From Escherichia coli (GTDB taxonomy: Bacteria > Pseudomonadota > Gammaproteobacteria > Enterobacterales > Enterobacteriaceae): a DNA stretch of 2,223 bases. The DNA lies in assembly GCF_003334315.1 (NCBI RefSeq), contig NZ_QOWR01000110.1; one strand, 5' to 3'. This document shows positions 2,150 through 2,223 of the stretch, piece by piece (positions within the stretch are counted from its first letter, which is position 1; every line of letters starts with the position of its first letter). Both the position numbers and the translations under genes were made by a program. The notes beneath the pieces are model-generated. The model was not told where the DNA came from and searched no databases. It worked only from the letters and a program-made list of their open reading frames with translations.

Positions 2150-2188
2150 ACTGGCCCCCTGAATCTCCAGACAGTTGGTATCACTTAA
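2147..2188 (+). repeat. IS2 left terminal inverted repeat (IRL), roughly 41-42 bp
   Basis: Starts TAGACTGG and contains the CCAGACA...TATCACTTAA block shared by both IS2 ends. The candidate 5-bp target-site duplication copy is ctgcc at 2142-2146. Confidence 0.6.
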
Positions 2189-2223
2189 GTTAGTGATAGT
2201 CTTAATACTAGTTTTTAGACTAG
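2147..2223 (+). mobile_element. IS2 (IS3 family) left end: terminal inverted repeat and leader upstream of the transposase gene; the element continues beyond the right window edge
   Basis: TAGACTGGCCCCCTGAATCTCCAGACA...TATCACTTAA...GTGATAGTCTTAATACTAGTTTTTAGACTAG matches my recollection of the IS2 left end. The orfA (insC) start codon would lie about 10 nt past the window edge. Recall-based; a few internal positions differ from the IS2 sequence as I remember it. Confidence 0.8.

Follow-up and report, generated by a model that had tools for sequence, protein, structure and literature searches.

The contig examined here raises the question of which insertion sequence (IS) interrupts the diguanylate cyclase gene dgcJ in this strain of Escherichia coli, and whether the few bases that distinguish the left end of this element from that of IS2 are variation within IS2 or the regular sequence of a related element. 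The window, that is, the whole stretch of DNA analysed, is the 2223-bp draft contig QOWR01000110.1 (GCA_003334315.1), which is flanked by IS1 and IS2-like repeats and, being bounded by two repeats in this way, represents a typical short-read fragment.

The left extremity of the window (positions 1–126, minus strand) is formed by the terminal 126 nt of an IS1 copy, identified by the IS1 annotations found under its matches and by a Pfam match to the InsA zinc ribbon in a 24-aa fragment at 1–71. The unique part of the contig (127–2146) is 99.85% identical to K-12 MG1655, and contains an intact cdgI (yeaI) of 491 aa at 191–1666 on the plus strand, recognised in the list of open reading frames and by comparison with K-12, followed on the same strand by the 5' part of dgcJ (yeaJ), whose first 100 codons occupy 1847–2146. 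The open reading frame of the latter, taken from the same list, continues through its stop codon (1847–2149), a TAG that is supplied by bases 1–3 of the IS. The remaining bases of the window (2147–2223) are the first 77 nt of an element of the IS2 group of the IS3 family, which lies on the plus strand, as do all of the parts of this end described below. In K-12, dgcJ reads ...CTGACTGCC up to the insertion point and CATAAATACC beyond it, with no IS between the two. The truncation at residue 100 is shown directly by the reading frame, and inactivates dgcJ. The contig ends at nt 77 of the IS, so that orfA, which begins at nt 92 in the relatives, lies beyond it, together with orfB and the right end. 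At the other end of the window, 64 bp separate the IS1 sequence from the start codon of cdgI, and in K-12, which has no IS1 upstream of this gene, the corresponding insertion point lies where ...TTACAA is followed by TCGCTTTAAAT. An origin in Shigella, which the load of IS1 and IS2 might suggest, was rejected, given that the CdgI of the source (RCQ21229.1) is recorded as an E. coli protein and that the unique part of the contig is so close to K-12.

The earlier note, which was made from the letters of the sequence, had described most of 2147–2223 as an IS2 left end with possible variation inside its inverted repeat. When aligned with the annotated IS2A of E. coli K-12 MG1655 (NC_000913.3, 381260–382590), taken here as the IS2 reference, the 77 nt are identical at 70 positions (90.9%), which bears out the first part of this description. 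The seven differences fall exactly where the note had placed them, with ACCAA in IS2A replaced by GTTGG at IS nt 28–32 (2174–2178), A by G at nt 43 (2189), and A by T at nt 45 (2191), while nt 1–27, 33–42, 44, and 46–77 are the same in both sequences. The bases that the note gives for the canonical element, ACCAA and ATA, are also those of the K-12 copy. An exact match to the reference IS2, which had been named as the result that would dispose of the variation, is absent from this alignment, so the differences stand.

The framing of these differences as variation inside IS2 is not supported, given that GTTGG and GTT are the regular left-end sequence of sibling elements of the IS2 group that are either 81% or 88% identical to IS2. 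By convention, ISfinder treats as isoforms those elements that share approximately 95% or more of their nucleotides with the reference, and the identity of the 77 nt to IS2A is below this level, which is that normally expected of copies of the same IS. Within the 42 bp that constitute the left inverted repeat (IRL) of IS2, 37 positions are identical, and all five of nt 28–32 are different. The window does have the characters that define the left ends of the IS2 group as a whole, namely the terminal 5'-TA, box II (CCAGACA), box III (TATCACTTAA), and the extended -10 sequence, all of which are the same as in IS2A, and the likeness extends to the cleavage domain and to the leader as far as nt 77.

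The anatomy of this end can be read by transferring the published coordinates of IS2 (Lewis et al. 2012, PMC3299598), in which the IRL is 42 bp in length, elements II and III are alike at both ends of the element, and element C is not. In the window, the IRL would thus extend from 2147 to 2188, with its outer 11 bp (2147–2157) as the cleavage domain and the rest as the protein-binding domain. The spacer of element C, between CCAGACA and TATCACTTAA, occupies 2174–2178 (GTTGG, compared with ACCAA in IS2), with its exact boundaries inferred from the alignment of the left and right inverted repeats and from the same paper, which assigns nt 20–42 to II, C, and III. These nucleotides of the IRL (20–42) are also the anchoring sequence of the IS2 transposase, and the docking site proposed for the OrfA repressor, 5'TAAATAA3', is found inside the protected nt 39–48 (PMC3299598). 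The predicted counterpart of this docking site in the window (IS nt 40–46; 2186–2192) reads TAAGTTA. The location of the differences within the transposase and repressor binding region, which had been put forward with some reserve, is borne out by these coordinates.

The internal dyad that had been noticed in the window was recovered by an inverted-repeat search as TATCACT-TAAGTT-AGTGATA (2179–2198), with arms of 7 nt at 2179–2185 and 2192–2198 that are 100% complementary and 6 nt apart, whereas the arms of the operator dyad of IS2 are 9 nt long, in the arrangement TATCACTTA-AA-TAAGTGATA. The spacer GTTGG, the operator centre TAAGTTA, and the 7-nt arms are the respects in which the window departs from IS2. 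Downstream, the extended -10 promoter PIRL (TGATAGTCT, IS nt 48–56; 2194–2202) is the same as in IS2A, where this weak promoter is described as starting with TGAT at nt 48–51 (PMC3299598). A scan of the IS end for sigma-70 promoters with two hexamers did not pick up PIRL, as expected of a promoter that has no -35 hexamer.

One possible origin of the differences is an error of assembly or sequencing at the end of a short-read contig, such as a collapsed or chimeric repeat end, and a complete draft contig that has IS1 at one end and an IS2-like repeat at the other presents the type of end at which assemblers are least reliable. The Logan assembly of another run, SRR10357290, contains the same dgcJ junction, ...CCAGACAGT, and spans the first two of the variant bases, and the complete 77-mer is a real and common sequence. 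The agreement of an independent assembly at the junction, together with the presence of the 77-mer in many finished genomes and plasmids, argues against an artefact, which is an extremely improbable explanation.

The distribution of the variant left end was established in a census of 5426 complete E. coli genomes, which provided 6800 matching records. In 5819 of these, the best match was 90–95% identical to the 77 nt of the window, with 6–7 mismatches, and in only 103 of the 6800 did the identity reach 99% or more. The K-12 form (ACCAA/ATA) is thus the majority form in E. coli. Complete records of E. coli with the exact 77-mer numbered 17, and the element could be classified by its body in each of them. 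In fourteen, the element shares at least 99.5% of its sequence with that of strain 5270, whose identity to IS2A is 81%; the transposases of these elements are placed by the NCBI pipeline (PGAP) in the ISEc27 family or the ISEc36 family of IS3-like elements. In a further two, the LH09-a chromosome and a plasmid of NMBU-W10C18, the element is of a third type, 88% identical to IS2A, and the last, plasmid pSYM5/6 of strain G3/10, carries a chimera with the sibling-type sequence at nt 1–166 and IS2 in the remainder.

On plasmids, at least 133 records are 99% or more identical to the 77-mer, and the 40 matches listed, all of them at 100%, are mainly from Klebsiella, Citrobacter, and Enterobacter, and also from Raoultella, Leclercia, and Kosakonia. 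Three of these plasmids (from K. pneumoniae, Citrobacter, and Kosakonia) were found to encode the same transposase, WP_148116659.1, or one of the ISEc36 family. The left end in the window is therefore identical at all 77 positions to that of elements named ISEc27 or ISEc36 in 14 E. coli records and in three plasmids of other genera, a comparison that refers to the first 77 nt of these elements. The full-length relatives that share the 77-mer are 1331 bp in length, and have the orfA/orfB frameshift organisation found in IS2, with a programmed -1 frameshift and a DDE transposase annotated in each of them. The names ISEc27 and ISEc36 are used here as ISfinder names in the way that PGAP applies them to transposases; both are catalogued elements that have been reported repeatedly in the vicinity of mcr-10, blaIMI, and other resistance genes.

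Matches to canonical or near-canonical IS2 ends were also obtained from outside the Enterobacterales. Lamprocystis purpurea DSM 4197 has a 100% identical IS2 on a contig of 1543 nt, and canonical or near-canonical ends are found on short contigs of Collinsella and Lachnospiraceae metagenome-assembled genomes. The probable source of all of these is contamination by E. coli or the mis-binning of contigs.

A second possibility is that the copy in dgcJ is a canonical IS2 that has acquired private point mutations in its IRL, and would thus be either a degenerating copy or a regulatory mutant. The clustering of the differences in the regulatory region might be expected of such a copy, and five adjacent transitions are, at first sight, unusual. 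The identical 77-mer is found, nonetheless, in finished sequences from at least seven genera, and seven independent mutations that rebuild the same sequence are not credible. Stepwise intermediates also exist elsewhere. These were recovered by scanning one genome per bacterial species with a pattern in which the seven variable positions were left free and the flanking boxes were fixed. Both of the extreme haplotypes were found, together with the intermediates ACCAG/ATA, ACTGA/ATA, GCTGG/ATA, ACTGG/GTT, GTTAG/GTT, and GTTGG/ATT, in Pantoea, Serratia, Klebsiella, Erwinia, Superficieibacter, Enterobacter, Yokenella, and other hosts; the invariance of the boxes among these haplotypes is in part imposed by the search pattern itself. 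The presence of the intermediates in other genera indicates that the differences are long-standing polymorphisms among sibling elements, rather than mutations of an IS2 copy, and the chance that private mutations account for the window is vanishingly small.

A third explanation concerns the part of the element that lies beyond the contig. A genuine IS2, at least 95% identical to the reference over most of its length, could have had its first ~170 nt replaced by a left end of the ISEc27/ISEc36 type through recombination or gene conversion. The G3/10 element provides a precedent, given that all 25 of its informative sites as far as nt 166 are of the sibling type, and nearly all of those further on are of the IS2 type; the element crosses over between nt 166 and 172, and its overall identity to IS2A is 98%. 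In addition, IS2 is by far the most common element of its group in E. coli chromosomes. Set against this, the chimeric type was encountered once among the 17 E. coli records in which the 77-mer is exact, and a query built from the variant 77-mer and nt 78–300 of IS2A found no full-length match above 98.0% among the 5426 genomes. An IS2-bodied chimera in dgcJ is thus unlikely, while being a type of element that is known to exist.

Exchange between the ends and bodies of these elements is not confined to G3/10. A chromosomal element of BEN2908 annotated as ISEc27 family has an IS2-like left end (ACCAG/ATA), is 96–100% of the IS2 type in each 100-nt window over nt 1–500, and has 100% identity with the element of strain 5270 over the whole of the remainder, which starts at nt 501, so the name ISEc27 and the variant left end do not correspond one to one. 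The left half of the LH09-a element is nearer to the sibling type, and its right half is nearer to IS2. The elements of G3/10, BEN2908, and LH09-a are mosaics in which blocks of IS2-type and of sibling-type sequence are joined, and the names applied by PGAP (IS2, ISEc27, and ISEc36) follow the protein, not the ends. Mosaicism of this kind in IS1, IS3, and IS30 was reportedly described in natural isolates by Lawrence, Ochman, and Hartl in 1992.

Taken together, the best explanation, to which a probability of roughly 0.9 can be given, is that 2147–2223 is the left end of an IS2-group element of the IS3 family inserted after codon 100 of dgcJ, which carries the haplotype of ISEc27/ISEc36, rather than that of IS2 proper, and that the seven differences are fixed between the sibling elements at positions that tolerate change. 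Against this explanation, the finished examples of the variant left end are mostly borne on plasmids, while the copy in the window is chromosomal. The census of identical left ends, used as a prior for the body of the copy in dgcJ beyond the contig, makes a body of the ISEc27/ISEc36 type probable; a body of the LH09 type (88% identical to IS2), or some other body, is less likely. As the ends and bodies of IS2-group elements recombine, the left end is a weak predictor of the body.

With the sibling haplotype as the preferred reading, the seven differences would be of two types. The first comprises the 5-bp spacer of element C, where length and the pattern of purines and pyrimidines would be maintained while the identity of the bases is free, and the second, the two bases at the centre of the operator dyad of OrfA. 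In IS2, the deletion of bp 29 abolishes minicircle formation (PMC3299598), which implies that the spacing matters. In the window, the cleavage domain, element B, boxes II and III, and PIRL are unchanged from IS2A, and the natural variation suggests that the bases of element C and the two central bases of the operator are tolerated positions. The end would then be expected to act as the IRL of IS2 does, as the recipient end that is joined by the cleaved right end to form the figure-of-eight and then the minicircle. It would also be expected to carry the weak promoter PIRL, which would drive orfA and orfAB, and to serve as the site at which OrfA represses this promoter.

The repressor itself is highly conserved between IS2 and the sibling type, with 115 of the 121 residues of OrfA identical despite 70 differences in 363 nt. 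Residues 16–58, which we take to be the region of the helix-turn-helix segment, are all identical. This near-identity argues for a DNA-binding specificity that would be unchanged between the two types.

Within element C, seven haplotypes were found (ACCAA, ACCAG, ACTGA, ACTGG, GCTGG, GTTGG, and GTTAG), all of them with a purine-pyrimidine-pyrimidine-purine-purine (RYYRR) order of bases. To connect them takes at least seven substitutions, and 7/7 are transitions, set against 0.55 for the fraction of transitions among the differences between IS2A and the sibling type overall; the chance of an all-transition pattern is approximately 0.015. This may be taken as a mild hint that element C is read through its shape, rather than its bases.

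At the operator, nt 45 (A or T) goes with the identity of residue 14 of OrfA (Thr or Ser, respectively) without exception among the elements tabulated, the intermediates being no different, and the operator centre at nt 43 and 45 (ATA versus GTT or ATT) tracks this residue, which is adjacent to the RRRR arm. The G3/10 chimera keeps its operator centre and OrfA residue 14 together. Less than 90 nt separate the two sites, and linkage is sufficient to account for their association. The more elaborate proposition, in which the IRL, the operator, and the first codons of orfA would form a left-end module that recombines as a unit and sets repression groups, with element C separately read by its shape, is speculative and quite improbable. 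If the N-terminal arm of OrfA did read the operator centre, co-resident elements of IS2 and the ISEc27/ISEc36 type would not cross-repress.

The same combination of IS1, cdgI, and dgcJ interrupted by the IS is found in other drafts (LYBE01000080.1, DABAWT010000125.1, and the Logan assembly mentioned above), which indicates that one lineage of E. coli carries both insertions; in none of the corresponding contigs does the sequence run further into the IS than in the window. Among the complete E. coli RefSeq genomes, the junction of dgcJ with the IS was not found, and none of the records covers the window beyond position 2146, which places the carrying lineage outside this set of complete genomes. 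A scan of metagenomes gave 0 matches to the left junction. On the right side, exact look-ups of three guessed products, that is, the 3' fragment of dgcJ fused to a right end of either the IS2 type or the Ec27 type, and a product starting at an internal Met, matched nothing on record.

A partial DgcJ of exactly 100 residues is also found on 62 contigs, in 91 blocks of public assemblies. These contigs stop at ...CTGACTGCCC(A), 0–2 nt from the insertion point of the IS in the window, without any IS sequence at their end, and the breaks at residue 100 occur in at least two sequence backgrounds of dgcJ. They were considered as further junctions with the IS and rejected, as the genes are cut by the end of the contig at this sequence. 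In E. coli MGY (NZ_CP019629.1), a derivative of MG1655, an IS1 lies within dgcJ near codon 333, and was likewise rejected as the cause of the shared contig break, to which its position is unrelated. Copies of IS1 are found in or beside cdgI and dgcJ in several genomes of phylogroup A, and the locus gathers IS insertions repeatedly.

The presence of a sibling left end in dgcJ is an ordinary feature of already catalogued biology, and what is slightly new here is descriptive, namely the mosaicism of the elements, the RYYRR pattern of element C, and the association between nt 45 of the operator and residue 14 of OrfA. Given that left ends of the ISEc27/ISEc36 type circulate mainly on the plasmids of the Enterobacterales, the chromosomal copy may have been acquired horizontally. 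For annotation, the IS that interrupts dgcJ should not be named IS2 on the basis of its end alone, and the mosaics indicate, for the typing of insertion sequences from short reads, that the ends and the transposase bodies of IS2-group elements can disagree. The natural variants also represent a small mutagenesis of the IS2 left end, provided free of charge, in which changes affect the 5-bp spacer and the two central bases of the operator, and spare the boxes, the spacing, and the promoter.
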